DNA of 55,535 nt, taken from IMG/VR virus record IMGVR_UViG_3300009110_000302, positions 62,001-117,535 of that record, one strand, 5' to 3'. The notes under the pieces are model-generated. The model saw nothing but the letters and a program-made list of their open reading frames with translations, was not told the origin of the DNA and searched no databases. Positions 16,083 through 55,535 of this stretch are shown here, piece after piece; the first letter of the stretch is position 1, and every line of letters starts with the position of its first letter. The translations under genes and the position numbers were made by a program. This stretch comes from an uncultured virus (IMG/VR IMGVR_UViG_3300009110_000302). Taxonomy: Duplodnaviria > Heunggongvirae > Uroviricota > Caudoviricetes.

Positions 16083-16412
16083 ATGCCAGTTAAGAAGAAA
16101 ACGAAAAACAAAGACGGCTCCATACGAAAGAAAGGTTCGGGTCGTACAAAAGGTTCGGTTAGTTTTGTAGAGGTTAGTCTAGGAGACTTAAAACAATCTC
16201 TTGAGCCTTTGGGAGACAACGCCACTATCCTTGTAGGACGTAAGTGGGTGGAAGGTCTTGAAATGGTGGGCATACGTTTATCTGCAAAGAAGTTAGACTC
16301 TTGCCAAGCTACCAGTAAAGGCAACATCGAAGCAGCAACTACTTCAGTAGACATGAAGGTAGAGGACTTTGATAGTGATGATGAAGTAGGGATAGATGAA
16401 GTAGAATTTTAA
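16083..16412 (+). CDS. Hypothetical protein, basic N-terminus and acidic C-terminus (possible DNA binding)
   Basis: RKKGSGRTKGS motif; class A promoter 16049-16076. Confidence 0.55.
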   Translation: MPVKKKTKNKDGSIRKKGSGRTKGSVSFVEVSLGDLKQSLEPLGDNATILVGRKWVEGLEMVGIRLSAKKLDSCQATSKGNIEAATTSVDMKVEDFDSDDEVGIDEVEF

Positions 16413-18468: not shown

Positions 18469-18947
18469 AGTTCTTTGAGAGATTGACAATTTAAGTTGCG
18501 GAAACGCGACAACAATTTAAGCTGACGACGGTTGGCTTAAGGGAATGGCTGAACAACCCTCCATCATAAGGGGTAAGGCATAGGGATACGTGTTAGAGTA
18601 TAATCGTATGAGACACGTGTTTCTAGTAGACTGGTAAACTTGAACTGTATTGTGCACTGGTCTTGATGGTAATGCAGCAATCCATCTTCCCATTAATTTT
18701 GTGCGTGGTGCTGGGTTACAGGCCACGTAACAGGAAGAAACACAGGTTACCTCAACCGGAAGCGCGTAAGTATTCCTCGCGTCTGCAAAGGGAGAAGCAG
18801 CGGGTAACCAACGTGAGATCCCAAAATTTCCGTAGTCCAAAATCAAAGGGCTACGGTTTCAACAAGGTCGGGAAAAACAAACGCAGTTGATGCGCCCGTT
18901 AAAGATGAGTTCACACCGAACGTGACCATCGCCTTGTTATTTTTTTT
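18469..18947 (+). ncRNA. Large structured noncoding RNA (~480 nt), family unassigned
   Basis: Own promoter, ends in stem plus T8; about ten hand-identified helices with G-U pairs, including GTTGCG-GAAA-CGCGAC, TAGGGATACGTGTT/GACACGTGTTTCTA, CCGTAGTCC/GGGCTACGG. Confidence 0.75.
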
Positions 18948-18956
18948 GCCCTAATA

Positions 18957-18996
18957 GCACTTGGCACGAATCGTGCTGCCCGATTTCAACCAAGTG
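18957..18996 (+). repeat. 39-bp dyad element copy 1 (sigma54-like box)
   Basis: CACTTGGCACGAATCGTGC-T-GCCCGATTTCAACCAAGTG; TTATTCACA at 19009-19017. Confidence 0.85.
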
Positions 18997-19306
18997 TCAA
19001 GCGTAAAGTTATTCACACCTCAAAAAATTTCTTAAAATCAACGAATTTCACACCGGAGAAAGTGGGGGTAAACAAGAAATTTTCAGGCATGATACCTCAC
19101 AAAAGCAGGGCTTTCTTTCAAAACAATTACCCCCTTTGTCGCTCATTAATTGCCATAATTGATTGACAAACTATTTTGCCGCTCATTTGTGATCGACAAA
19201 AAAATGCATCTAATGTGCATTTAATGCTTGTCACAGGCTTAACTATGCTTATAATGGTTATAACAGTTTGAGACATTAACACTAGAAAAAAGGAACTATA
19301 TATATT

Positions 19307-20209
19307 ATGCCTATAGAAGCAAAACAACAGATTGATGAGGGCTACGACTTCACCGCCAAACAGGTTGAAGTACCCCATCCAATCACCGGAAAAAAATCCG
19401 GTTATTACATGAACATCCGTGAAGACACGGGCGACATCATGGGGTGGACTACTGACCGTTACGGTCTGGTTAATCACCGTGACATAGTAGGGTTTGCAGA
19501 CAATGCGTTTGCTGACCGTGGTATCGAGGTTAATCGTAAAGTTTACGTGACCGAAAACGGTGCGAAGTGCCGTGCGGTTTATGACCTTATCGGTTCGGAA
19601 TATCAAGCGGAAGTTCCCCAAGTCGGTGACATTATGGGCTATCGTTTGACTGCTCAAAACTCGCTTGACCGTAGTCTTCGGATGGCTTATTCGTTAGGCT
19701 TAAAGCGTCTGGCTTGTTTGAATGGCATGACCACAACCGAGTCGGAAGTGGAAATGACAAAGAAACATTCTTTGAATGTTAACTTGAACGAGGTGCTTTC
19801 TCCAAAAGCCTTGGATACTGCTCTTGCCAAGATGAAGCAGAGCCTGACTGTTTACGGTCGGTTGTCGCAGTCGGAAGTTTCTCAAGAGCAAGGAATCATT
19901 ATCCTTCAGAACCTAGCAAATGCCAAGGTGTTTTCTGAAAAGGTGCGTGAGTCTATCGCTCAAGTTTGGAACGGCCAACCAGAGGGACTTGGCAGAGGTG
20001 GAGATGCCGATAAGAGTCGGAACCTTTACAACCTTAACAATGCCGTCACGGAGCATTTGACCTATGAGGTTGCGGATACTCGTTTCGAGTATGCAAATCG
20101 TGTGACCTCTCAAGTCTTAAAGAGGTTCGACAAGGCGACTCGGAACCAAAAAGTTTTGGAGAAACTTTGGACTCCCGCCAAAAATGATCAAATAGTGATT
20201 ACTGAGTAG
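19307..20209 (+). CDS. DUF932/DUF945 family protein
   Basis: REDTGDIMGWTTDRYGLVNH, ENGAK, NSLDRS...RLACLNGM...KKH, NLYNLNNAVTEHLT. Confidence 0.75.
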   Translation: MPIEAKQQIDEGYDFTAKQVEVPHPITGKKSGYYMNIREDTGDIMGWTTDRYGLVNHRDIVGFADNAFADRGIEVNRKVYVTENGAKCRAVYDLIGSEYQAEVPQVGDIMGYRLTAQNSLDRSLRMAYSLGLKRLACLNGMTTTESEVEMTKKHSLNVNLNEVLSPKALDTALAKMKQSLTVYGRLSQSEVSQEQGIIILQNLANAKVFSEKVRESIAQVWNGQPEGLGRGGDADKSRNLYNLNNAVTEHLTYEVADTRFEYANRVTSQVLKRFDKATRNQKVLEKLWTPAKNDQIVITE

Positions 20210-20220
20210 GCTACCCAACC

Positions 20221-20261
20221 GATCCCCTCGCTGCGTTAATCGTGGCGGGGGGATTTTTTTT
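20221..20261 (+). terminator. Intrinsic terminator
   Basis: GATCCCCTCGCTGCG-TTAAT-CGTGGCGGGGGGATT then T tract. Confidence 0.8.
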
Positions 20262-20330
20262 GCCCGTTTAAATAATAACTATTAAATAACGATTATTAAA
20301 TAGACCCGAAAAAATAATAACACCAAATAA

Positions 20331-20370
20331 GCACTTGGCACGGATCTTGCAGCCTGATTTTTAACTAGTG
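20331..20370 (+). repeat. 39-bp dyad element copy 2
   Basis: CACTTGGCACGGATCTTGC-A-GCCTGATTTTTAACTAGTG; left arm TGGCACG-N4-TTGCA is an exact sigma54 consensus. Confidence 0.8.
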
Positions 20371-20434
20371 GTCAAGCGAAAAAAAAAGAAAAAAAATGCT
20401 TGCATGAGTCTTAACCATCCCTATAATTAAGAAC

Positions 20435-20614
20435 ATGAGCAAAACATACGGAACCTATCAAGCAAGAAACGCTGTCAAAGCAGCACAAGTCACCAACCAT
20501 ATCAAAGCACAGAAAAAGATTGGCGTAACTCACGAGGAAGCTAAGGCTGAAGCCTATCGGATCTTCAACATCAAGGCAGCATTACCAATCTTAACCCGTC
20601 ACTTCTTACTTTAG
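20435..20614 (+). CDS. Small hypothetical protein (59 aa, not in ORF track)
   Basis: MSKTYGTYQARNAVKAAQVTNH...; class A promoter 20400-20427. Confidence 0.55.
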   Translation: MSKTYGTYQARNAVKAAQVTNHIKAQKKIGVTHEEAKAEAYRIFNIKAALPILTRHFLL

Positions 20615-20653
20615 GGGTTGACACGAGGCTAACTTTCGCTATAATTAAGGAAG

Positions 20654-20845
20654 ATGAAAATTAAAGGAATCAGAAACGGTTCGTTATATTATAACGAAGG
20701 AACCCAACGAGTAGAACGTGTTCGTAGTAAAGCGAATAGTCAATCAGTTTTCACCACTGTCCATAACAAAGCGTTGGCTGTGGTTCCGGCTAAATCTTTG
20801 AATTTGGCTAGTGGAGAACAGATTGCAAGCTACTTGCAATCATAA
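20654..20845 (+). CDS. Small hypothetical protein
   Basis: Class A promoter 20618-20645 directly upstream. Confidence 0.6.
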   Translation: MKIKGIRNGSLYYNEGTQRVERVRSKANSQSVFTTVHNKALAVVPAKSLNLASGEQIASYLQS

Positions 20846-20928
20846 ACATAACCCTCTCGCCCTTTCTTTACTTTTGGGTGAGAGGGTTTTTACTTGTTAA
20901 GAATATAACTATCATTATAATTGGAACT

Positions 20929-21501
20929 ATGAAAGAAACACTTAAAGATTTAGGGAATACCGCTTTGGATATTCTGTTAACCCTTATTTTAACTTTGCTT
21001 GCCTTGCATATGCTTTTGTTTGCTGCTGTGTCAGTAGCATCAGCGCAAGAGCTAACGCCCGACCAAACAGTTGTCGCAAAGACTATTCTTGGCGAAGCGC
21101 GTGGAGAAGGTAAGGCGGGTATGTATGCCGTTGCTTGTGTCATAGCGCAACGAGCAATTCTGCGGAACAAAACTCCAAAAGAAGTTTGCAAACAGCCTTC
21201 GCAATTTTCTTTTTGGGTTAAAGATAAAAAAACTACCCTTGACGACAGGAATAGAGCAACGGTTGAGCGGCTTATGAAGCACGATATCGAATCAGTGCGT
21301 TACGCTAAAGCTTTGGCTATTCATGTAATGAAAGTAGATCGTTCTTATACTGACCACGCAGACCACTATTGCGCGACAAGAGTTAGTCCTTACTGGGTAA
21401 GAGGGAGGACACCTGTAAGAATCATAGGCAATCATAAATTCTTTAGAATTAACTCCAGAGTTTTTGGAATAACAAAATCTTCTGTCTTGACTCAACCTTA
21501 A
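20929..21501 (+). CDS. Cell wall hydrolase, SleB/Hydrolase_2 family, with N-terminal TM/signal
   Basis: TILGEARGE...AVACVIAQR, EVCKQPSQFSFW, HY, PYW, IGNHKFF. Confidence 0.85.
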   Translation: MKETLKDLGNTALDILLTLILTLLALHMLLFAAVSVASAQELTPDQTVVAKTILGEARGEGKAGMYAVACVIAQRAILRNKTPKEVCKQPSQFSFWVKDKKTTLDDRNRATVERLMKHDIESVRYAKALAIHVMKVDRSYTDHADHYCATRVSPYWVRGRTPVRIIGNHKFFRINSRVFGITKSSVLTQP

Positions 21502-21523
21502 CCATCATTATAATTAAGAAACA

Positions 21524-21853
21524 ATGAAGGCAATCATAGAAATCGAATTAGGCAACTCATCATTTGGCAACAACGATGCTGAAAGACTATTTGAGATGCG
21601 AAACGTCATTGAAAGACTAATGGACAACGCTGACCGTATTATGGCAGCAGACGTTGGAGACTTCACAACCGCGCAAGACGCTAACGGTAACACGGTCGCT
21701 AGAATGGACATCGTAGAAGGTGGCAGGACACCAAAGATGTACGGTCTGGAAAATCAAGCACCTGATCAGCAACTGAACGTAGACCCCGCAGACAAGTATC
21801 AAGAGATGCGGAATGAAAACTGGGCAGACTCAAACGTCAGCGACCCATACTAA
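21524..21853 (+). CDS. Hypothetical protein
   Basis: Class A promoter 21487-21514. Confidence 0.6.
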   Translation: MKAIIEIELGNSSFGNNDAERLFEMRNVIERLMDNADRIMAADVGDFTTAQDANGNTVARMDIVEGGRTPKMYGLENQAPDQQLNVDPADKYQEMRNENWADSNVSDPY

Positions 21854-22088
21854 AATTATGAGCGACTATTGGACCGGACTTGTTAACTATAAACCAAAAA
21901 AGAAAATGACTGATAAAGAATCAAAGCAATTAGATATCTGTCTTGCGTTGTTGGCAATGGCATCCGCAAAGGGAGCGCACCCCACGGATATGCTTAACGC
22001 ATTCACCTTTGATATGAATCTAATAAGGAACGGGGAAGATCCTACTGAAACTCAAAAACTAATTGAGTAATTTCTGATATAAAAACTT

Positions 22089-22129
22089 GCACTTTATGTA
22101 AATCGGGCCGCACGATTCGTGCCAAGTGC
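22089..22129 (-). repeat. 39-bp dyad element copy 3 (inverted)
   Basis: Reverse reads CACTTGGCACGAATCGTGC-G-GCCCGATTTACATAAAGTG; TTATTCACA at 22151-22159. Confidence 0.85.
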
Positions 22130-22164
22130 AAGTAAAGTTTTCGAAAAAAGTTATTCACAATGCC

Positions 22165-22193
22165 TTGACAGGAGGGCGTTTCTGTGTTATATT
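22165..22193 (+). promoter_or_regulatory. Class B promoter (TTGACA-N17-TATAYT with TGTG-type extended -10)
   Basis: TTGACAggagggcgtttctgtgtTATATT; relatives at 25452, 26974, 27329, 28574. Confidence 0.75.
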
Positions 22194-22200
22194 TATTTCA

Positions 22201-22347
22201 ATGAAAGTGAGAAGGAAAAGAAAACGCAGAGCAAGAGCGAGAGTGAACCGCGAAGGCTTTATGAATAGCGCAACCCGTGAACATCGCGTGAAGAAGGGTA
22301 AAGGCTCTTTTAGGCGTAGAAAAAAACATCAAAAAAAATTCGATTAG
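22201..22347 (+). CDS. ArfA-like small basic protein
   Basis: 48 aa, REHRVKKGKGSFRRRKKH resembles the ArfA KKGKGSY-x-R-x2-KH motif. Confidence 0.5.
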   Translation: MKVRRKRKRRARARVNREGFMNSATREHRVKKGKGSFRRRKKHQKKFD

Positions 22348-22402
22348 GGCTTGCATTGTCCTGCTCGACCTGTCATAATCCTATCCAGAAAGTAAATCAA
22401 TT

Positions 22403-22843
22403 ATGTATAACAACCACACAAACACAAAACTAGAGTATCAAGACTTCAGCACTAAAATCATCGTTGCCATCACTGGCGCACCTGAAGATGTGGAAGCTGA
22501 TTTCTGGGGATTCTTCAACACCAACGCCACCGATGCGGGATTGCATCATTTTGGCGAGGCGCGTATTCATTGGCTAACACCTACCACCGCGCAATTTTAC
22601 ACAACCCGTGAGCGTTTGCTTGCTGGTATGGAATTGCGAGCTTTGAACAAACTTCTAAACGAGTCTGCCGATGGTTACAAAGGCACAAAAGGCGGTGCGT
22701 TGGCAGATGCTAAACAAATGGCGCAAGAGTGGTTTGACTCGATGGAACGTGTCACGGACATCATCAAAAAGAATGTGCGAGAGACTACTTACGGCATGGG
22801 AACCATCTCGGCCGAAAAGCCTGACAGCGATTATAGTGCTTGA
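22403..22843 (+). CDS. Hypothetical protein
   Basis: 146-aa ORF with promoter-like TTGCAT...CATAAT upstream. Confidence 0.6.
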   Translation: MYNNHTNTKLEYQDFSTKIIVAITGAPEDVEADFWGFFNTNATDAGLHHFGEARIHWLTPTTAQFYTTRERLLAGMELRALNKLLNESADGYKGTKGGALADAKQMAQEWFDSMERVTDIIKKNVRETTYGMGTISAEKPDSDYSA

Positions 22844-22875
22844 ATCAATCTTAACTATCTGTATAATTAACAAAG

Positions 22876-23619
22876 ATGAACGACCTATTAAAATTTGGAG
22901 ATCCGAACTCCAAGCTAAAGAAAATGATTCGGAAGCTTGGGCTTAAACTAAAAACCTTCACGCTTCCCGCTGGACACACTTGCCCCGGAGCAAAAGACTG
23001 TTTATCAAAAGCAGATCCTGAAACCGGAAAGATTCAAGACGGGCCAGATACGGAGTGGCGATGCTTTGCCGCTAGTGCAGAGGCAACGTATCCGTCATTG
23101 CGTAAAATGGTTTGGCATAACTTCGACTTGCTAAAGCAAGCTTTGAAATTAGACCAAGAGGCAGGATTTGAGAACTGCCCACACACTACCGATTTAATCA
23201 ATCGGAGCTTGCCCAAAAAGTTTGACATCATGCGTGTCCACGTTGGCGGGGATTTCTTTTCAAAGCGTTACTTGCAAGCGTGGGTTGACGTTGCAAGGCA
23301 AAACCCTGACAAGGTTTTTTATGCCTACTCGAAAAGTCTTAATTTCTTTTTGGAATGGGCGTTGCCTTCTAACCTTGTCTTGACTGCCTCGCGTGGTGGC
23401 AAGCATGATGAATTGATTGACGTTGCCGGTTGGAAAGAAGCTGTTGTTGTTTACAGTGAGCAAGAAGCAATCGACAAAGGTTTAGAAATCGACCACGACG
23501 ACACACACGCAGCGTTTGGAAAAGAAAACTTTGCGTTGTTAATTCACGGGACACAGCCAGCAGGGAGTATGGCAAGTAAGGCGTTGCAACTTCTTAAACG
23601 GGGAAAGGTTGCCGCGTGA
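22876..23619 (+). CDS. Phage gene product 88 (GP88)-like protein
   Basis: FTLPAGHTCPGA..C...CFAA, RVHVGGDFFS, FYAYSKS, LPSNLVLTAS. Confidence 0.7.
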   Translation: MNDLLKFGDPNSKLKKMIRKLGLKLKTFTLPAGHTCPGAKDCLSKADPETGKIQDGPDTEWRCFAASAEATYPSLRKMVWHNFDLLKQALKLDQEAGFENCPHTTDLINRSLPKKFDIMRVHVGGDFFSKRYLQAWVDVARQNPDKVFYAYSKSLNFFLEWALPSNLVLTASRGGKHDELIDVAGWKEAVVVYSEQEAIDKGLEIDHDDTHAAFGKENFALLIHGTQPAGSMASKALQLLKRGKVAA

Positions 23620-23734
23620 GCTTAGAAGTAATATTTATAATTGCCTTTTTAATATTTCTTTTCCAGCTACAAAAATGAAAATCCGAATAACAAACAAAGG
23701 CCCGCCCTAAAATTTTTCTTAAAAAAAGCTTGAC

Positions 23735-23774
23735 CACTCGCCAAAAATCGGGCAGCACGATTCGTGCCAAGTGC
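23735..23774 (-). repeat. 39-bp dyad element copy 4 (inverted)
   Basis: Reverse reads CACTTGGCACGAATCGTGC-T-GCCCGATTTTTGGCGAGTG. Confidence 0.85.
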
Positions 23775-23917
23775 TCAAAGCTAGGTGGGACATTGGCTGT
23801 CCACCCACTTAAATTATTTTTCAGACCGCTATTTGAGCCCACAAAAACAGGGTTATTCTGCACCATTTTTTTTTGCGTATCACTTGCATTATTCGTAAAA
23901 GTGGAGTATATTAAGGT

Positions 23918-24196
23918 ATGTTAAACAAAGAACTAACAGTAGAACAAGAAGCTCAACTCCTACTCAACCAAGAGATTGAGGTAACAAGCTCACGCATCAT
24001 GCAGCTTTGGGGTAAGCGTGGAATCGTTGAGGCTGTCATGGCAGATGGTCGTACGTTAGACATTAAGCTAGCTGATGGCAAGAGCGTTTTCCTAGATGTC
24101 ACCTTTGTGGGTGAAGTGCGGGAAGGCATAGCGTTTGCCAAGCAAGAACAGTCTCTTGGCCCAATCGCTAACAGCGTAGTGAAAAGCACTCTTTAG
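23918..24196 (+). CDS. Hypothetical protein
   Basis: TTGCAT-N17-TATATT promoter ends 5 nt before ATG. Confidence 0.6.
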   Translation: MLNKELTVEQEAQLLLNQEIEVTSSRIMQLWGKRGIVEAVMADGRTLDIKLADGKSVFLDVTFVGEVREGIAFAKQEQSLGPIANSVVKSTL

Positions 24197-24233
24197 GCTT
24201 TACAGGCATTTAACTATCCCTATAATTATAACA

Positions 24234-24494
24234 ATGATGAACGAACTAGACCAATTCAAAGAAGATACCGCGATGCGCCTGTTTGGGCGTAGTCGTCGCC
24301 TTGCCATCGCTGGCAACCAATGCGTTAAGTGTGGCGCACACGATCTTGAGTTCCGTGACGAACTCAGCAGCAAGGAGCATGGCATCTCCGGTTTCTGCCA
24401 GTCCTGTCAGGACGACATCTTTGGCCCCAGCGATGAGGAGAAAGAGGAGGTTCTTGGAATCACTCACCAAATGTTTGGAGGTGAAGAATGTTAG
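24234..24494 (+). CDS. Small zinc-finger phage protein
   Basis: CVKCG...FRDELSSKEHGISGFCQSCQDDIFG; class A promoter 24199-24226. Confidence 0.65.
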   Translation: MMNELDQFKEDTAMRLFGRSRRLAIAGNQCVKCGAHDLEFRDELSSKEHGISGFCQSCQDDIFGPSDEEKEEVLGITHQMFGGEEC

Positions 24495-25045
24495 ACATCA
24501 CTGACAAAAAAGCTGTAAGAAAAACTTTCCGCCGTGATGTTTACCGCAATCTTCATTTCAGAGATGAGGTTGTCTATTCTGTGCGTAAAGATGGTCTGGT
24601 TGAGGGTCACGCCCTTTGTTATGTAATGGATGGCGTTACCTTTCACGTTGGGCCTAAAGGCAACCAGCGTGTGCGTGATGAGGAGCGTAAAAACGTTCAC
24701 GCTGTTATTCGCGGGCACGTTATCAATGCCGTTTGGTATGATGAGGATGAGATGGAATGGGCCAAGAGTGCTGCCCAACAATTGGCTGAGATAGAAATGT
24801 GTGGTGTGCCTGTGAGTCGTAACACGAATGTAAGTGACTTGGATGATCCGCGCGCGTGGGAGCCTATGTATAAATGGGTAGAGGTTAAGTATAACCCTTA
24901 TAAGTTCAAGAGCTTTGTCAGCCCTGTTTATTTGCCATTTGGTTCCGAGGAGCCAGAATTCAGACCCATCTTTGAGGCTCGTAAGGTTGTTATTTACAGC
25001 GAGGACAACAAGAGCAAAGTCATGGCAATGGTTCCAATTATTTAA
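24488..25045 (+). CDS. Phage hypothetical protein (YRNLH type)
   Basis: VYRNLH...YSVR..GLVEGH...QRVRDEERKNVHAVIRG...VKYNPYK. Confidence 0.65.
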   Translation: MLDITDKKAVRKTFRRDVYRNLHFRDEVVYSVRKDGLVEGHALCYVMDGVTFHVGPKGNQRVRDEERKNVHAVIRGHVINAVWYDEDEMEWAKSAAQQLAEIEMCGVPVSRNTNVSDLDDPRAWEPMYKWVEVKYNPYKFKSFVSPVYLPFGSEEPEFRPIFEARKVVIYSEDNKSKVMAMVPII

Positions 25046-25086
25046 CTTGCCCTTCTTAACTAATTCAACGAAACCTTATTCTGTAT

Positions 25087-25335
25087 ATGAAAAATTCAAA
25101 GAAAACTGATAAAATCCTGAACGAACTCCGTCGTCAGGGATGCACGATTAAAGAGAAGAAAAACAATGTGATGATTATTCCTCCTGATTCGAATGTGGAA
25201 GCTTACACTGTCCATAGAAGTGACAGACACGTTGGAGCATTGATTGACCATTGCTTGAAAAGATATAGCCACCTTTTGAATTTCAAGAAGCTGGCAAAGT
25301 ATCACAAGAGATTTCAAAACGGAGCGAAGGACTAA
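25087..25335 (+). CDS. Small basic protein, possibly HicA-like fold
   Basis: KILNELRRQGCTIKEKKNNVMIIPP...TVH; the HicA GSH histidine is absent. Confidence 0.35.
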   Translation: MKNSKKTDKILNELRRQGCTIKEKKNNVMIIPPDSNVEAYTVHRSDRHVGALIDHCLKRYSHLLNFKKLAKYHKRFQNGAKD

Positions 25336-25340
25336 ACACG

Positions 25341-25367
25341 AGCGGCGCGAGCCGCTTTTTATTTTTT
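25341..25367 (+). terminator. Intrinsic terminator
   Basis: AGCGGC-GCGA-GCCGCT then T tract, immediately before dyad copy 5. Confidence 0.75.
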
Positions 25368-25371
25368 ACTT

Positions 25372-25412
25372 GCACTTGGCACGAATCCGGCAGCACGATT
25401 CATGCCAAGTGC
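25372..25412 (+). repeat. 39-bp dyad element copy 5
   Basis: CACTTGGCACGAATCCGGC-A-GCACGATTCATGCCAAGTG; TGTGAATAA at 25416-25424. Confidence 0.85.
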
Positions 25413-25488
25413 TATTGTGAATAACTTTCTGAAAAAAATGCCTTCCAGCCCTTGACAAACGGTCGTTTGTGTGTTATATTTATACAAG

Positions 25489-25929
25489 ATGAACGAAGAA
25501 AGACTAAAACCACTTTTTGATTTAGACGGAACCCTAATCCGTGAGGATCGTGACAGCGATCGCCTTTTTGATTTCTTTCGCCCTCACGCTATCCTCGCAC
25601 TAACAGAAGATGATTTAACTCCTCTCGGCGTACTCGTTAGAGACTCTGGAAAAGAATTTGATATCCTTACAGCGAGAGGCCATAAAAACGCAGAATTTGT
25701 TCGCATCGCTCTTACTGCTCTCGGATTCAATGTAAACAAGATCGTCACCGTTGGAGTAGACATTAACTCTCCAGAAGACATGGATAACGTCAGCAGCAAA
25801 AGAGTAGCGGAAAGGAAAATCAGAATCGCCAAATTTGTTCAAAGAAAATTAGTTGACAATGACGAACGGAATCTGGTAGGATTGGGCGAGTTAGGAGAAT
25901 TAGTAAGCCAAGATCAAAAGGAATTTTAA
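25489..25929 (+). CDS. HAD-superfamily phosphatase
   Basis: Motif I FDLDGTL, motif II LTAR, Lys, motif IV VDND. Confidence 0.7.
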   Translation: MNEERLKPLFDLDGTLIREDRDSDRLFDFFRPHAILALTEDDLTPLGVLVRDSGKEFDILTARGHKNAEFVRIALTALGFNVNKIVTVGVDINSPEDMDNVSSKRVAERKIRIAKFVQRKLVDNDERNLVGLGELGELVSQDQKEF

Positions 25930-25931
25930 TT

Positions 25932-26165
25932 ATGATAAAGAACGGAAAAGAACAAAACGTAGTACCCACCACACGCAAACAAAACCTTGCTGCTGCCAAG
26001 GCTTGTGACGACCACTATGAGGCTTGCAGCTTGTTTCGGGCGTTGCAGTACGCCAACAACATGGGAACAGGTGAGGATGACTTTGACGAATTGGCAGAGC
26101 ATTTCATCAACAAGCAAGGGCTTACGGACTACTGCGAAAACGGATTTAAGAAAGTTAATCGGTAG
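25932..26165 (+). CDS. Hypothetical protein
   Basis: 77 aa; TAG stop lies inside the class C palindrome. Confidence 0.5.
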   Translation: MIKNGKEQNVVPTTRKQNLAAAKACDDHYEACSLFRALQYANNMGTGEDDFDELAEHFINKQGLTDYCENGFKKVNR

Positions 26166-26206
26166 GACTACGGATGTCCTACCCCCTGTGGTATACTATA
26201 CGTATG
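26161..26206 (+). promoter_or_regulatory. Class C element: palindrome + extended -10 + ATG
   Basis: GGTAGGAC-TACGGAT-GTCCTACC cccTGtgg TATACT atacgt ATG. Confidence 0.75.
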
Positions 26207-26374
26207 AAAATGATTATGAAAGACATAGAACTAAACGAAAACGGAAACGCCGTGGTAGACGGCACAGAGTATGAAGTGCGTGGATTTGACCACGAAGGAC
26301 AAGAGGCGATCGTGATTCACGAATTGGATTTGATTTCTTACGACGAAGGCGATAACTGGGAGGAAATGGAATAG
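26204..26374 (+). CDS. Small acidic hypothetical protein
   Basis: MKMIMKDIELNENG...; starts at the class C ATG. Confidence 0.55.
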   Translation: MKMIMKDIELNENGNAVVDGTEYEVRGFDHEGQEAIVIHELDLISYDEGDNWEEME

Positions 26375-26377
26375 ATT

Positions 26378-26641
26378 ATGACATTTAACGATTTGAAATT
26401 TAGCGACATATCTGAAACGCATGGAGAAGATGCAATTCAGGCGTATGTGGAATTGCCGAATGGTTATGATGTTTCCGTGGTGAAGCATCGGTTTTCATAC
26501 GGTGGCGAAAAAGGTATGTATGAGATTGGTTGCTTCTTTAACAATCACATGGTTGATCCTGCTGACTGGGGTGATACCGTCAAGGGTTGGTTGAATGAAA
26601 GTGATGTAGAAGATTGGATAAATGTGATTAAAAAATTATGA
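26378..26641 (+). CDS. Phage hypothetical protein
   Basis: LPNGYDVSVV...SYGGEKGMYEIG pattern recalled from phage hypotheticals. Confidence 0.65.
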   Translation: MTFNDLKFSDISETHGEDAIQAYVELPNGYDVSVVKHRFSYGGEKGMYEIGCFFNNHMVDPADWGDTVKGWLNESDVEDWINVIKKL

Positions 26642-26885
26642 GAGAATTAGATTCCATTATGTTTATTGTTTTCTTTTTAATGCTTTGCGCTATTGGCGTT
26701 TTTGTTATAGGCGTAGCGCATGACGCTTACATTGTTTGGTATATAAACAATTAAAATGAATATTTCAACAAACAAAAAAACAGGCACGACTACAATCGTA
26801 ATTTCTTCTAAATTAAAAGAGAAATTTTATAGTATTCTTATAGCTTTTGCTTTGGGGTTAATTATCGGTTGGATATTTTAGGCTT

Positions 26886-26925
26886 GCACTTGGCACGAAT
26901 CCGGCTGCCCGATTTATGCCAAGTG
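26886..26925 (+). repeat. 39-bp dyad element copy 6
   Basis: CACTTGGCACGAATCCGGC-T-GCCCGATTTATGCCAAGTG. Confidence 0.85.
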
Positions 26926-27008
26926 GTCAAGAACTTCTTAACAGGGAGAGAATAACTTTCTTTATTTAAAGGGTTGACAAATGGGCGTTTGCGTGTTATA
27001 TTTATACC

Positions 27009-27320
27009 ATGAAGATGATACTGAAAGCTGCCCGCAACGCAAGCCGCCGCACTCGTAACCGTGTCCGTGAGCACGGGCCCGTGTTCGAGGACGTTACCCG
27101 TCAACATACTGGGCGTAACTTGGGCAGGGGAGTGGTGGATGGTATGGACTGTGTATTGGTGCGTGCTGGTAGCTGGTTTGGCTGGCTACCCATAGATGAG
27201 ATTGAGCGCACCACTGAGGGTGGGGTTAAGTTCTGCTGGCCATTAGATGAGGATGGTGACTTAGGTAGCGCAGGGTGGCTATGCTTAAACCATCAGGCAT
27301 GGCTTAAAGAGCGTGAATAA
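27009..27320 (+). CDS. Hypothetical protein
   Basis: Class B promoter 26974-27002, ATG 6 nt downstream. Confidence 0.6.
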   Translation: MKMILKAARNASRRTRNRVREHGPVFEDVTRQHTGRNLGRGVVDGMDCVLVRAGSWFGWLPIDEIERTTEGGVKFCWPLDEDGDLGSAGWLCLNHQAWLKERE

Positions 27321-27363
27321 CTTACCCCTTGACAAGCACCCCTATGTGTGTTATATTCTTACC

Positions 27364-27606
27364 ATGATGAATGACATGAGCAACACCACCAACCACGACG
27401 CGCGTATCTCCTGCGAGGAGGCCTTCACTGAGGACATGGGCCCTGCCCATTGGGCTAATGAACCTGAGCAGCCCACCCACAAGGAGGTAGCTGGTGTGTG
27501 TGAGGATGCCCCTTGCTGTGGGTGCTGTGGTGACAGCATGGACGATGGCTATGGCACGTATGCTGATGATGCGTGGCATGATGCCAACGAGTACCCTGAC
27601 TGGTAG
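27364..27606 (+). CDS. Small acidic protein with CEDAPCCGCC motif
   Basis: Class B promoter 27329-27357; GVCEDAPCCGCCG. Confidence 0.6.
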   Translation: MMNDMSNTTNHDARISCEEAFTEDMGPAHWANEPEQPTHKEVAGVCEDAPCCGCCGDSMDDGYGTYADDAWHDANEYPDW

Positions 27607-27610
27607 GGTA

Positions 27611-27650
27611 GCACTTGGCACGAATCGTGCAGCCAGATCGGGGCCAAGTG
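27611..27650 (+). repeat. 39-bp dyad element copy 7
   Basis: CACTTGGCACGAATCGTGC-A-GCCAGATCGGGGCCAAGTG. Confidence 0.85.
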
Positions 27651-27665
27651 GTCAAGAACTTTCTT

Positions 27666-27941
27666 TTATTCTTTCTCGTCTTCCCAGTAGTAGCCTTCCG
27701 GTGGCATGATCTCGTTAAGGGTTGTACCTGTTGCCTTGCTCACTATGTATGGCTTAAGCTCTGCCATGTCTACCATACCCCATTCTTTAGCGAAGCCCAT
27801 TACATAGCCGAAGCTCAAGCCGTAGCTGTCTTCTTCTTCTAGGTAATACTCCCAACCATTACGCAGGATGATGTGTTGAGCCACAGCGAAAGGCTCTTTC
27901 GTGTCTTCATTGTTCGAGTTGATGATATTTCTTGTTTTCAT
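27666..27941 (-). CDS. DUF2958-like protein
   Basis: GWEYYLEEED..GLSFGYVMGFAKEWGMVDMAEL resembles the DUF2958 FG.V.G...E.G....EL pattern. Confidence 0.5.
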   Translation of the reverse strand: MKTRNIINSNNEDTKEPFAVAQHIILRNGWEYYLEEEDSYGLSFGYVMGFAKEWGMVDMAELKPYIVSKATGTTLNEIMPPEGYYWEDEKE

Positions 27942-27948
27942 AATTCAA

Positions 27949-28191
27949 TTACCTTTCAACACCAAGCTCTTTGTGGAGCTTGTTAATCTTATTAGTAGTG
28001 TGATTCCAAATCACTTTCATATCATTGGTGCGGTAAATCGCAGCACTACCAACACCGCCAAAGTGTTTACCATGAATTCTGACTTCAACGTCATTAACTT
28101 CAATTTGTGTCACAACGTCAAAGCGCGTGATGTTCTCAGCAATAAATTCTTGCTCTTCTTTATTTAGTTCTATGTTTTTCATATTCTTCAT
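27949..28191 (-). CDS. Hypothetical protein
   Basis: Starts MKNMKNIELN at the class C element 28189-28234. Confidence 0.6.
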   Translation of the reverse strand: MKNMKNIELNKEEQEFIAENITRFDVVTQIEVNDVEVRIHGKHFGGVGSAAIYRTNDMKVIWNHTTNKINKLHKELGVER

Positions 28192-28234
28192 GCGTCTAGT
28201 ATACCATACAGGGTGGGACATCCGTAGTCCTACC
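28189..28234 (-). promoter_or_regulatory. Class C element (minus strand)
   Basis: GGTAGGACTACGGATGTCCCACC ctgtaTGg TATACT agacgc ATG. Confidence 0.75.
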
Positions 28235-28430
28235 AGTTAATTTCTTTCACTCGAATGCTGCCGAGTCGGGCAACATCAGGAAACATCTTTGCGGCTACTC
28301 TGTGAGCGTGTGCCATATCAAATGCTTGAATAGTTTCTGTTTGCTCGCAAGCGGGACGGCTAGGGTCAACTTGCGTTACTAGGGTTAGTTGGAATAGTTT
28401 GTCTTTTATCATGTCTGTTTCAATCATCAT
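28230..28430 (-). CDS. Small hypothetical protein
   Basis: MMIETDMIKDKLF...IQAFDMAHAHRVA...; stop lies inside the next class C palindrome. Confidence 0.55.
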   Translation of the reverse strand: MMIETDMIKDKLFQLTLVTQVDPSRPACEQTETIQAFDMAHAHRVAAKMFPDVARLGSIRVKEINW

Positions 28431-28473
28431 GCGTATAGTATAGCACATGAGGTGGGACATCCGTAGTCCTACC
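28428..28473 (-). promoter_or_regulatory. Class C element (minus strand)
   Basis: GGTAGGACTACGGATGTCCCACC tcatgTGc TATACT atacgc ATG. Confidence 0.75.
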
Positions 28474-28502
28474 AAAAAGAAAGTTAGATTTTTTTTACTT
28501 GA

Positions 28503-28543
28503 GCACTTGGCACGAATCGTGCCGCACGATCTATGCCAAGTGC
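28503..28543 (+). repeat. 39-bp dyad element copy 8
   Basis: CACTTGGCACGAATCGTGC-C-GCACGATCTATGCCAAGTG; TGTGAATAA at 28547-28555. Confidence 0.85.
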
Positions 28544-28632
28544 AATTGTGAATAACTTTATGCAGAAACACCCTTGACAAAGGGCGATTTATGTGGTATA
28601 CTATATGTATTGAGAGTGAGAGATTAAAGATT

Positions 28633-42730: not shown

Positions 42731-43894
42731 ATGGTAATCACCATGAATGAAGAAAGCCAAAATAAAACAACACCTTTAAACGAATATCAATACGGCTCCC
42801 CGGACTTAATTGTGCCTGATATTCCTATGCCTGCTCCTCCGGAACCTAAGAAAGAAGTCGTAGATAAAGTCGATGGAGCTTTTCGGTTTGCTTTTGTCGG
42901 AGCGGGACAAGGCGGCTCTAGGATTGCAGAGATTTTTCACAAACTAGGCTATCGAAAAATAGCCGTCATGAATACCGCTCAGCAAGATTTAAATTTAATA
43001 AAAGTAGAACATAAACTATGCATAGGTGACGGTGGTGCGGGCAAAGAGCCTTCTGTAGCAAGAAAAAAGTTTGATGAAAGAAAAGAAGACGTTTTTGATT
43101 TTCTGAGAGATTCTTTAGGAGAAGGCGTTGATAGATATTTTATTTGTGCGGGCGCTGGAGGGGGAACGGGCGCGGGGACGGTGATGCCTTTAATTGAAAC
43201 TGCTTCAGAATTGCAAAAATCTCAAGGGTCTTCAACCGATAAAGTAGGAGTAATTTTAGCTTTACCAAAAGTCTCAGAAGGGACAAAAGTTAATGCTAAT
43301 GCTTATCAGGTTTTAGAAGAAGTATACAGCGCTGTAGAAAGCGGCTTAGTCTCTCCTTTGGTTGTTGTCGACAACGAAAAAATAAATAAACTTTACCCCG
43401 GTCTTGGCGTGGCTCCGTTTTGGCAAACAGCTAATATGAGTATAGCTGGACTATTCCATTTGTTCAATAATACTGCTACTAAAGACAGTTCTTTTTCTAC
43501 TTTTGACACAAACGACTACAAACAGGTTCTCGATTCAGGCATGATAGTTTTCGGAGCTACCCAAATAATGCAATGGGAAAATCCAAGCGATATAGCTCAA
43601 GCAGTTAGAGACAACTTAAAAACTAATGTCCTTTCGGGAGGTGTAGACTTATCTACTGGCACTAGCGCAGGAGTAATCATGATAGGGGGGAACGAGGTCT
43701 TAAATAACGTTCCTCAGGATCACCTAGATAAAGCATTTGAACAATTTACTAGAATACTAGCAAATGGTAGCGTGGTGCATAGAGGTATCTATAGCGGTAA
43801 CAAAGATAATCTAACAGCTTATACCATGATTGGGGGCTTAGGTAAACCTCATGAGAAGCTGGAAGAACTTAAAAAACATGGAGGGCTTTTATAA
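42731..43894 (+). CDS. Tubulin/FtsZ family GTPase (PhuZ/TubZ-like)
   Basis: FVGAGQGGSRIA, MNTA..DL, GGAGK, signature GAGGGTGAG, VVDN, D.NDY. Confidence 0.9.
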   Translation: MVITMNEESQNKTTPLNEYQYGSPDLIVPDIPMPAPPEPKKEVVDKVDGAFRFAFVGAGQGGSRIAEIFHKLGYRKIAVMNTAQQDLNLIKVEHKLCIGDGGAGKEPSVARKKFDERKEDVFDFLRDSLGEGVDRYFICAGAGGGTGAGTVMPLIETASELQKSQGSSTDKVGVILALPKVSEGTKVNANAYQVLEEVYSAVESGLVSPLVVVDNEKINKLYPGLGVAPFWQTANMSIAGLFHLFNNTATKDSSFSTFDTNDYKQVLDSGMIVFGATQIMQWENPSDIAQAVRDNLKTNVLSGGVDLSTGTSAGVIMIGGNEVLNNVPQDHLDKAFEQFTRILANGSVVHRGIYSGNKDNLTAYTMIGGLGKPHEKLEELKKHGGLL

Positions 43895-53751: not shown

Positions 53752-55535
53752 ATGATTAGTAATGTAAACATTCAAAGTGAATCGATTACAGACATTCTTA
53801 GCGCTCCTCTGGGTGTTCATTATGTTATATACTGTGTTTATTTTTGCAATAAATCAGACACCAAAGAAGAAACGGTTACGATCCATTTAGCTGACGGATC
53901 GACAAGCTCTTTTAATTCAGAGACAACTATACTTAAGGAAGTAATTATCCCCCCGGGGGAGACTTTCGTTTTAGGATCTTCTAAGAAGCTTTCTAACGTT
54001 GTTCATTACATGAAAAAAAGAGGAATTGAAGAAAACAAAATATATTTAAACCCGGGTGAGACTTTGGCCGCCTCCTCTTCTGGCCTTAACGTTGTAGCTT
54101 CTCCTATTTATTATAAGTTTGGTGAGGAAGAAAGGGATAATCCGATAGAAAGCCCTACTCCCACGCCTTCTGTGACCCCTAGCTCTGGAGTAATAAGCGA
54201 GTTTTGTCCTTGTAATCGTAATCCAAATGATCAATATCAATATTCTGATTATGCTCATGTGAATACAGGAAATAATTTTTTCCTAGTCCCTTATAATGAT
54301 ACTATTTCTCCTCATGCAACCTCAGGTAAAACTATATTTAAAGCAGGGGATTGTATTTGGTATAAAACCCGTCCTTTTGGAACAATTGAACATCAAACAC
54401 CTACATGGATCAATAAAGTTGGAAGAGTTGAAGGCCCTGTGTATCATGGAAACGATCCTTATTATAAAATAATTTTATATGAAAGACTTCCAGAGAGATT
54501 AGTAGTCGGAACTCAAATTTATAGATGTGACTCTTCGGTTCACGGGCTTACCCCAACCCCGACAAGCTCTATTACTCCCACGCCTTCTGTAACGCCCTCA
54601 AAAGTAACCCCGAGTGCAACCCCTACAAATAGTACGACCCCGAGCGCGACTCCGAGCGTGACTCCAAGCAATACTCCTACTAATAGTAGAACCCCAACTA
54701 CAACACCAACTCCTACAGCATCTGAACCGGTTCTCGGATGCGAAATTGAAGTAAGCGGTGCTCCTATCTCAATTATTAATGGGCTATACGAGCCAGCTGG
54801 TACACATAACGTATGGGGGTCAACTAGAACCTATTATCGCCAAGTTTGGCCCGAGAACACCCCCTCCAAGGCTGGAGCGCACGAATCTCGTTACTTTAAA
54901 ATGTGGCACGATTCCGTTCGGTGGATTGTCGGTCGATTTCTGGGTACACCGGGGTTGGGAAACGAATGGATCCAATCCCAAGATACGCAAGCTGTACATC
55001 CTTGGAGCGCGCCTTGGGGGCATTCATACCCTCTGCCTTCTTGGGGCACCTCTGTATCGCAAGTTATCTGTCCAACCCCGAGCGTGACCCCAAGCGTGAC
55101 CCCGACCAATACCCCTACGAATAGCGTTACTCCGAGTAATACTCCGAGCGTTAGCCTAAGCAGTAGCCCGGGTAGTTCCCCAAGTAATACCCCGAGTAAT
55201 ACTCCAAGTAATACTCCAAGTAATACTCCAAGTAATACTCCAAGCAATACCCCGAGTAATACTCCAAGTAGTACCCCGAGTATAACGCCTACGTCTTCTA
55301 TGACTCTTTGTTCTTGCACTCCTGCTGCATGGCACCCTGACTCGTCTATAGCAGATCCAGCACCTCATGATTTGTACGAAGCCGCCTCTGGAAATTCCGG
55401 CTCCCATACGATCGAAATGCCGTGGGGCACGGTAGCAGCACCGGGGCACGTCCATCCAGTTTTAAAAGAAGGGGATTGTGTTTATTTCCGTCAGCCAAGC
55501 GGGCCGAACCCTAATGGTAGGTTTGGTAACGGTCC
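53752..55535 (+). CDS. Large Thr/Pro/Ser-rich modular protein, 3' truncated (not in ORF track)
   Basis: Frame open from ATG 53752 (MISNVNIQSESITDIL...) to window end; TP/TPSN linkers separate Cys-flanked domains. Confidence 0.8.
   Translation, partial: MISNVNIQSESITDILSAPLGVHYVIYCVYFCNKSDTKEETVTIHLADGSTSSFNSETTILKEVIIPPGETFVLGSSKKLSNVVHYMKKRGIEENKIYLNPGETLAASSSGLNVVASPIYYKFGEEERDNPIESPTPTPSVTPSSGVISEFCPCNRNPNDQYQYSDYAHVNTGNNFFLVPYNDTISPHATSGKTIFKAGDCIWYKTRPFGTIEHQTPTWINKVGRVEGPVYHGNDPYYKIILYERLPERLVVGTQIYRCDSSVHGLTPTPTSSITPTPSVTPSKVTPSATPTNSTTPSATPSVTPSNTPTNSRTPTTTPTPTASEPVLGCEIEVSGAPISIINGLYEPAGTHNVWGSTRTYYRQVWPENTPSKAGAHESRYFKMWHDSVRWIVGRFLGTPGLGNEWIQSQDTQAVHPWSAPWGHSYPLPSWGTSVSQVICPTPSVTPSVTPTNTPTNSVTPSNTPSVSLSSSPGSSPSNTPSNTPSNTPSNTPSNTPSNTPSNTPSSTPSITPTSSMTLCSCTPAAWHPDSSIADPAPHDLYEAASGNSGSHTIEMPWGTVAAPGHVHPVLKEGDCVYFRQPSGPNPNGRFGNG
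55180..55281 (+). repeat. 12-bp coding tandem repeat (TPSN)n
   Basis: ACTCCAAGTAAT and variants, about 8 units. Confidence 0.85.

Follow-up and report, generated by a model that had tools for sequence, protein, structure and literature searches.

Sigma54-type boxes in early-region dyads and in sister-phage early promoters point to likely recognition by host RpoN in a marine phage family

The stretch analyzed here (the window; 55,535 nucleotides) comprises bases 62001–117535 of a linear 117.5-kb record of an uncultured Caudoviricetes virus (IMG/VR IMGVR_UViG_3300009110_000302), which is 69% complete according to CheckV. A block of small early-type genes (window 18957–28543) contains eight near-palindromic 41-bp dyads (20-1-20) that are found nowhere else in the genome, and the stronger arm of each resembles the −24/−12 box of the host sigma factor sigma54 (RpoN). 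Judged from sequence, recognition by RpoN is likely in this phage family because sister phages, here termed type A, have the box in promoter position before orthologues of window genes, and use of host RpoN appears to be a trait of the whole family. These sigma54-type promoters of the sister-phage early genes arguably outweigh the dyad as a finding. Across the sequences compared, the box represents one of several arm types in a broader element and not all of it: its −24 half is conserved, its −12 half is looser, and the core persists where the box is lost.

The original prediction identified the invariant arm of the dyad as a sigma54 box. As it stated, the GG-N10-GC spacing is exact in all eight strong arms; these arms also contain GCACTTGGCACG without exception and have the −24 element TTGGCA(C/T), in each case as TTGGCACG. 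The pattern TTGGCACG-N6-GC occurs eight times in the 9.6-kb region, with 0.006 occurrences expected, and is absent from the remaining 107,934 bases of the genome. Copy 2 has the predicted sequence (TGGCACGGATCTTGCA) and is the only copy with a TTGC −12 element. GG-N10-GC was also found on the opposite strand of the copies for which it had been reported (1, 5, 6, 7 and 8), with the two GCs one base apart, yet credible boxes on that strand are limited to copies 5 and 8; copies 2, 3 and 4 lack it. The direction of the strong arm does not track the downstream genes, as had been noted: the strong arms of copies 3 and 4 face away from the gene that follows, and the genes on either side of copy 7 converge on it.

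Relatives were fetched with a DUF932 (TIGR03299-like) protein encoded in the window (19307..20209, +) as the anchor. Its alignment yielded 91 loci, of which the metagenome part consists of the best 80 of 155, and these fell into 31 clusters at 90% identity. Type A comprises five clusters, a label assigned after the data had been seen, and one representative per cluster was counted. In the five lineage representatives, all 61 TGGCAY-N7-GC boxes are on the coding strand, and an ATG follows the −12 C at 11–13 nt in 41 of them and at 14–19 nt in nine more (50/61 in total). The 26 non-A representatives have 120 boxes, of which 56 lie on the coding strand and none (0/120) is followed by an ATG at 11–13 nt. 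The type-A box is thus oriented toward a gene and directly upstream of it, whereas the box in the window and in the other non-A lineages is not. In the established geometry of −24/−12 promoters, a gap of 11 nt places the sigma54 start on the A of the ATG, an arrangement in line with the near-leaderless sigma70 promoters seen in the window.

The type-A set contains 69 distinct promoters that share the 17-mer TTGGCAYGRAWCYTGCT. They have C at −16 in 67 of 69 cases; neither this position nor −14 was used in selecting them. At most early genes of the sister phages, TTGGCAYG-N4-YTGCT is located 11–12 nt ahead of the ATG, a leaderless arrangement with sigma54 geometry. Early regions with such boxes are present in loci L022, L034–L037, L052, L064, L068, L077, L078, L080, L113 and L114, and in L130 (2465–10083).

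The same genes can be followed between the two arrangements. The gene order of a type-A contig is as in the window, and its terminase is 76% identical. Window genes 21524, 22201, 22876, 23918, 24234 and 27009 have a sigma70 promoter here and a sigma54-type box before their type-A orthologues, with weak orthologue matches for gene 27009 (35–42% identity). The GP88-family gene (22876–23619), for example, has a sigma70-type promoter at 22840..22867 (+), and its orthologues (69–71% identity) have a sigma54-type promoter 12 nt ahead of the ATG. The type-A orthologues of the DUF932 gene, the RuvB-like gene and gene 20654 are without a box within 60 nt. The RuvB-like and 20654-like genes of type A (L022, L035, L036 and L052) have kept sigma70-type promoters, in which a short palindrome (ACGCATGCAAG, TTGCA-N4-TGTAA) overlaps the −35 region.

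A matrix built from the 69 type-A promoters, whose training sites were selected for TGGCA and GC and so weaken the comparison, gives dyad arms ranks 1–9 of 235,014 genome positions. In the DUF932 tree, the window protein and two type-A clusters form a clade (100/99). The labels do not group together on the tree, with type A requiring four changes, at least two of them forced, as is expected for exchanged (mosaic) modules.

Across lineages, TTGGCAY and GC are constant, and the spacers and flanks change. Among 183 intergenic TTGGCA sites from 29 lineage representatives, GC is found at N10 after GG in 124 and at N13, corresponding to the second GC of the GCNGC center, in 82 (other spacings, 4–24). 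TTGGCAY with exact N10 spacing recurs in 12 lineages that differ at other positions. In the slot after DUF932, sequence was available for 29 clusters: 12 have a boxed dyad, five are type A, two are mixed, one has a lone box and nine have none. The original prediction had named free variation of GG and GC in homologous elements as evidence that would count against it. Such variation exists in part: nine of the 29 lineages are boxless, one lineage carries TTGGCACG-N6-GG, and −14 is mostly G in the arms of the closest relatives. The N10 spacing is kept at the 124 sites given above. By eye, five of the nine boxless lineages show a GC-rich core flanked by different arms (e.g. TTGACA...TGTCAA), and one of the nine has TTGGCACGGAACGTGG.

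Different dyads were seen in equivalent slots of L021 (4400–13200), L029, L071, L073, L079, L081 and L084, including AGTACG-N4-CGTACT, GGGGCWGCCCC, inward-facing TTGACA arms round a GC clamp, and GAGACT-N-AGTCTC. GCWGC was also considered as an avoided restriction site and was rejected, with an observed/expected ratio of 0.99.

The downstream genes have their own sigma70-type promoters, as predicted, with nine sites at 11–12 of 12 consensus matches; at a loose threshold there are 30 such sites compared to 21.7 ± 5.8 in shuffles, which is no clear excess. One sigma70-type promoter was located within 130 nt for 89 of 136 boxed dyads. These 89 dyads have GG on both arms in 50 cases, on the promoter-proximal arm only, pointing away from the gene, in 32, and on the other arm only in seven. 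The dyad center is typically 36–70 bp upstream of the sigma70 −35 hexamer, with a main peak at 44–47 flanked by others near 37, 56 and 67. Among the 59 center-to-−35 values that are unique within lineages, which are not independent and include one spurious promoter call (value 100), both of which weaken the test, R is 0.38 at a period of 10.3 bp (Rayleigh p = 2e-4), with R of 0.05–0.12 at periods 8, 9 and 15. A jitter control on 31 off-peak values gave p = 4e-4. This phasing is suggestive of a bound protein acting on the neighboring promoter.

Pairing between the arms was analyzed in 126 elements from nine lineages, with arms shuffled among copies as the control. Spacer positions are paired within one copy in 402 of 1008 cases, compared to 443 ± 10 after shuffling, and the corresponding whole-arm values are 1250 and 1311 ± 12. 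A hairpin or cruciform (stem-loop terminator) was therefore rejected, as same-copy arms are less complementary than shuffled arms and there is no arm-to-arm covariation. Terminator-like hairpins separate from the dyads exist in the window.

The best explanation, which we hold tentatively and somewhat short of an even chance, is that the dyad is an upstream control platform whose stronger arm would hold host RNA polymerase-sigma54 in a closed, non-transcribing state and thereby damp or tune the adjacent sigma70 early promoter. Host RpoN would bind mainly through the invariant −24 half, followed by the relaxed −12 half and then GC-richer DNA. Because the two −12 elements overlap, each dyad would accommodate one holoenzyme. 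The bound sigma54 enzyme would sit back to back with the sigma70 polymerase and compete for the A/T-rich region upstream of −35, and early expression could in this way depend on how much sigma54 holoenzyme is free. The GCNGC core is probably recognized by another factor, since boxless lineages retain that core. In E. coli, many sigma54 sites are bound without transcription, and the data at intergenic sites fit sigma-factor competition (PMC4591121). According to PMC5095919, −24 recognition dominates closed-complex formation, which fits a binding-only site with a relaxed −12 element. We are fairly confident that sigma54 holoenzyme would bind the better dyad arms in vitro.

The invariant arm is very probably an RpoN-type site, given the spacing, the promoter position of the box in type A and the frequent presence of RpoN in the likely host phylum; this identification does not extend to the element as a whole, in which the box is one arm type with a relaxed −12 half. 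A number of observations weigh against the parked-polymerase explanation. All 69 type-A promoters have T at −14, unlike the dyad arms: the ten window arms have T at −14 in seven cases and G in three, with G at −14 in two of the strong arms (copies 5 and 6) and G at −15 in five. The six closest relatives have G at −14 in nine of 11 boxed arms and T in two. The window arms score 16.8–23.8 on the type-A matrix, whereas the training promoters have their 5th percentile at 24.0. The box is missing from the homologous slot in the nine lineages mentioned above, and the lineage-specific arm flanks (CACT, AGTAAG, AACGAT) are not explained by RpoN. A GCWGC-centered element is also found upstream of many type-A promoters, with GG at N10 in none of 24 cases. 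Moreover, 47 of the 136 boxed dyads have no called sigma70 promoter, no credible promoter adjoins copy 7, and the distances in the window alone (49, 51, 56, 60, 68, ~130 and 251) show no clear phase.

For the E. coli motifs from chromatin immunoprecipitation (PMC4591121; n=135), counts made by eye from Tables 1 and 2 showed five with G at −15 and none with G at −14; 149 low-stringency sites in the supplements are outside the 135 and could include −14 G. Judged by these motifs, seven of the eight copies have a credible box, copy 6 has none, and a credible reverse box is limited to copies 5 and 8. G is found at −14 in three of the five reverse boxes (copies 1, 6 and 7), two of which (copies 1 and 7) are in addition without CA(C/T) after GG. 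Two of the E. coli motifs (IS33 and IS41) share GTG at −15 to −13 with dyad arms (PMC4591121).

The leading alternative, possible if on the unlikely side, is that the dyad is the lineage-specific operator of a dimeric regulator, either phage-encoded or another host protein, with a sigma54 appearance that is inherited from an old sigma54 promoter or incidental. This would account for the two-fold symmetry and for lineage-specific arms around a common GCNGC core, and also for the persistence of the core without GG, the drift of −14 to G in close relatives and the GG at −13/−12 in one lineage. Helical phasing to the −35 hexamer is typical of activators, and Cluster A mycobacteriophages have lineage-specific repressor sites, according to PMC6550527. 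The operator does not account for the recurrence of TTGGCAY with exact N10 in 12 otherwise differing lineages or for the use of the box in promoter position by the sister phages, and no candidate regulator was found in the genome, which is 69% complete. No cognate phage repressor was recognized among the open reading frames covered by the family scans (68 with PHROGs and Pfam, and 106 with NCBIfam, of ~177 called).

It is improbable that the dyad arms are working sigma54 promoters, driven by a host activator and firing antisense into the upstream unit or making short RNAs that silence early genes. Dyad arms are top-ranked by the family's own promoter matrix, the retained arm faces the upstream unit in 32 versus seven cases, and interference from active sigma54 promoters is left open in PMC4591121. 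Conversely, the stretch from −11 to −1 after the GC is 50% GC in dyad arms compared to 32% in type-A promoters, the T at −14 is often lost, the non-A boxes have no ATG at promoter distance, and the −12 elements overlap. An activator gene was not found either: no PF00158 match exceeded the cut-off in the genome, its twin (see below) or three type-A fragments (records 9–83% complete). The RpoN DNA-binding domain was likewise not found in this genome, and the searches for activator and RpoN domains gave only sub-threshold matches, on the RuvB-like ATPase. A clear sigma54 activator domain (PF00158, E 2e-60) is present in a complete 49-kb phage record (L125; G005:C1:3108-3566), which matched the type-A promoter pattern once and whose kinship to the dyad phages is not established.

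The two functions put forward in the original prediction, decoy and roadblock, fare poorly. A decoy role, in which the dyads would sequester sigma54 holoenzyme of the host and might also deprive co-infecting sister phages that depend on it, is very improbable. It would fit the many binding-type sites outside promoter context and a site number that would multiply after replication, and PMC4591121 names decoy roles as possible. Nevertheless, an entering genome brings about ten credible sites, compared to more than 250 in E. coli (PMC4591121), a ratio at which titration would not be expected. A sponge also has no need of a copy per gene unit, a preferred −35 distance or an orientation bias, and degenerate −12 halves weaken binding.

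Recombination or hairpin sites that shuffle gene cassettes, in the manner of PeSL, are less probable again. Two relatives, L031 and L030, show block differences to the window whose ends coincide with dyads, a few contig joints are located at dyads, and the DUF932 tree labels are scattered as in mosaic modules. However, same-copy arms are less complementary than shuffled ones, many contig joints with short sides are located elsewhere, and the −35 phasing is left unexplained; as any repeat promotes exchange, cassette shuffling at the dyads may be a by-product and is treated as such. Roadblocks, by which bound sigma54 holoenzyme would halt read-through between cassettes, are the least probable, despite the position of the dyads between gene units and of several right after terminator-like hairpins, because copy 7 lies between convergent genes and because polymerase-sigma54 bound inside E. 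coli genes did not lower expression (sigma54 overexpression lowered only three of 85 genes with internal sites, and the authors exclude roadblock repression; PMC4591121).

Returning to the control platform, the phage dyads can be compared to three known systems. Bacterial sigma54 sites, as described in PMC4591121 and PMC5095919, share TTGGCAY and the exact GG-N10-GC spacing, and many of those in E. coli are similarly bound but silent. In contrast to them, the phage dyads are paired head to head with overlapping −12 elements and often have G at −14; they are located upstream of sigma70 promoters and have lineage-specific flanks, and no activator gene was found with them. The PeSL cassettes of the T4-type phages phi1 and RB49 (PMC2839356) resemble the present region in their repeated intergenic modules, consensus sigma70 early promoters and variable small-gene region, and in gene blocks that differ between relatives at the modules (here L030 and L031, with mixed evidence from contig joints). 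The PeSL dyad is a stem-loop terminator, whereas the present dyad is without compensatory pairing and carries a sigma54 box. The stoperators of Cluster A mycobacteriophages (PMC6550527) are also many copies of a protein-binding motif whose sequence varies between related phages. They are asymmetric, oriented with transcription and distributed genome-wide, and are bound by a known phage repressor, whereas the present elements are dyads in both orientations and confined to 9.6 kb, and no repressor was identified for them.

Among the papers listed by literature searches on phage use of sigma54 promoters, none dealt with early genes of phages that are driven or controlled by sigma54, and the early promoters of the comparison phages are sigma70-type (PMC2839356). 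The new features here are the switch between sigma70 and sigma54 on orthologous genes within one family, the paired, phased and binding-only form of the sites, and the orientation bias. The family offers a natural experiment, with the same genes behind sigma70 promoters in some members and behind leaderless promoters of sigma54 geometry in others. It raises the questions of how promoters that depend on an activator could be switched on in a phage genome as it enters the cell, given that no activator was found in the partial records, and whether a parked sigma54 polymerase can regulate neighboring sigma70 promoters. A wider proposal, which we regard as doubtful, is that one marine phage family, probably of Verrucomicrobiota, swaps its early program between host sigma70 and sigma54 promoters, such that the paired, helix-phased, non-firing sigma54 sites of the sigma70-type members would serve as a parked-polymerase sensor of host state and as an early-gene repressor.

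The individual dyads differ in quality and setting. Copy 1 (18957..18997, +) has its strong arm, TTGGCACGAATCGTGCT, on the plus strand and a poor reverse GG-N10-GC. It is located downstream of a manA-containing RNA region and 251 bp ahead of the sigma70-type promoter of the DUF932 gene (19228..19255, +; TTGTCA-N16-TATAAT). The manA RNA (Rfam RF01745) is at window 18518–18696, in a gene-free stretch directly ahead of this copy. Copy 2 (20331..20371, +), without a reverse box, is the closest to the sigma54 consensus (TTGGCACGGATCTTGCA); it follows the DUF932 terminator (20221–20255), with 49 bp between its center and the −35 hexamer. The center of copy 3 (22089..22129, −) is 56 bp ahead of the TTGACA at 22165, part of a near-leaderless sigma70-type promoter (22165..22193, +) whose orthologous gene in the sister phages has a sigma54-type promoter. 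Copy 4 (23734..23774, −) is ~130 bp ahead of the promoter of the gene from which its strong arm faces away.

Copy 5 (25372..25412, +) has boxes on both strands, the reverse one (TTGGCATGAATCGTGCT) being better, and its center is 60 bp ahead of the TTGACA at 25452 in a near-leaderless sigma70-type promoter (25452..25480, +). Copy 6 (26886..26926, +), with G at −14 in both arms, is centered 68 bp ahead of the TTGACA at 26974 in another near-leaderless promoter of this type (26974..27002, +). Copy 7, with its convergent flanking genes, is at 27611..27651 (+). Copy 8 (28503..28543, +) again has boxes on both strands, and its center is 51 bp ahead of the TTGACA at 28574 (sigma70-type promoter 28574..28602, +).

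Other elements are interspersed with the dyads. The nonamer TTATTCACA is found at 22151..22159 (+), between dyad and −35 hexamer, and additionally at 19009–19017 (+), 25416–25424 (−) and 28547–28555 (−). In many relatives (e.g. L027 and L089), TTATTCACA or TTATCCACA is located between dyad and −35, often 4–5 nt before TTGACA. We take these nonamers to be DnaA-box-like, and their position suggests that the promoters concerned involve an additional host factor. Another family of dyads, GGT(A/G)GGAC-N7-GTC(C/T)(T/C)ACC, is present at window 23784, 26161, 28212, 28451 and 28805 and absent from the rest of the genome. Four of its copies occupy the expected −35 position of promoters with a TATACT −10 element, and the family looks like an activator or repressor site. 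A short basic open reading frame (window 22201–22347) that is common in relatives has a weak match to the ribosome-rescue protein ArfA (E 0.001, below the cut-off). DUF932 was considered as the dyad-binding protein and rejected, as its model, with a predicted local distance difference test (pLDDT) score of 77, had no PDB match at E ≤ 0.001; the papers listed by a literature search on DUF932 gave no information on its function. The small basic protein at 16083 gave no family match.

The genome encodes a DnaE-type polymerase, DnaB, a primase, rIIA/B and three sigma70-family factors, as well as a tubulin/FtsZ protein, PhoH, a Clp-type protease and a terminase. Another IMG/VR record, of 142 kb, shows no differences over the 20.9 kb compared and is therefore a twin rather than an independent genome; exact-pattern scans of viral contigs for the window dyad found this twin and one unrelated single site, and nothing else. 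The sequencing runs that hold the region and have a named habitat are marine or seawater metagenomes, and no RNA dataset is among the runs listed as holding it. No cultured relative was found for the capsid protein, and the terminase gave matches at 23–27% only.

The host is probably a member of Verrucomicrobiota, judging by the relatives of phage proteins. The relatives of the phage RpoD-like factor that are listed with an organism name comprise six of eight from Verrucomicrobiota, the phylum to which we presume these names belong, one from Myxococcaceae and one archaeal metagenome-assembled genome. Verrucomicrobiota likewise predominate in the Atlas clusters closest to a conserved small protein, based on three and six members with a record. 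Against this assignment, a related contig was binned in a Pseudomonadales metagenome-assembled genome, so the host is not established; that assembly also has rpoN. Verrucomicrobia often possess RpoN, according to PMC3372290.

Auxiliary genes (G000:C1 38058–63200; window 42731–43894) encode an aldehyde dehydrogenase, GMP reductase, GlmS, a histidine decarboxylase-like protein, proline dehydrogenase, ribosomal protein S21, a MotA/ZorA-like protein and a tubulin with a weak TubZ C-terminal match. Tandem repeats of 12 bp (TACTCCAAGTAA-like) are found at window 54620–55313, in a tail-type gene with which the window ends.

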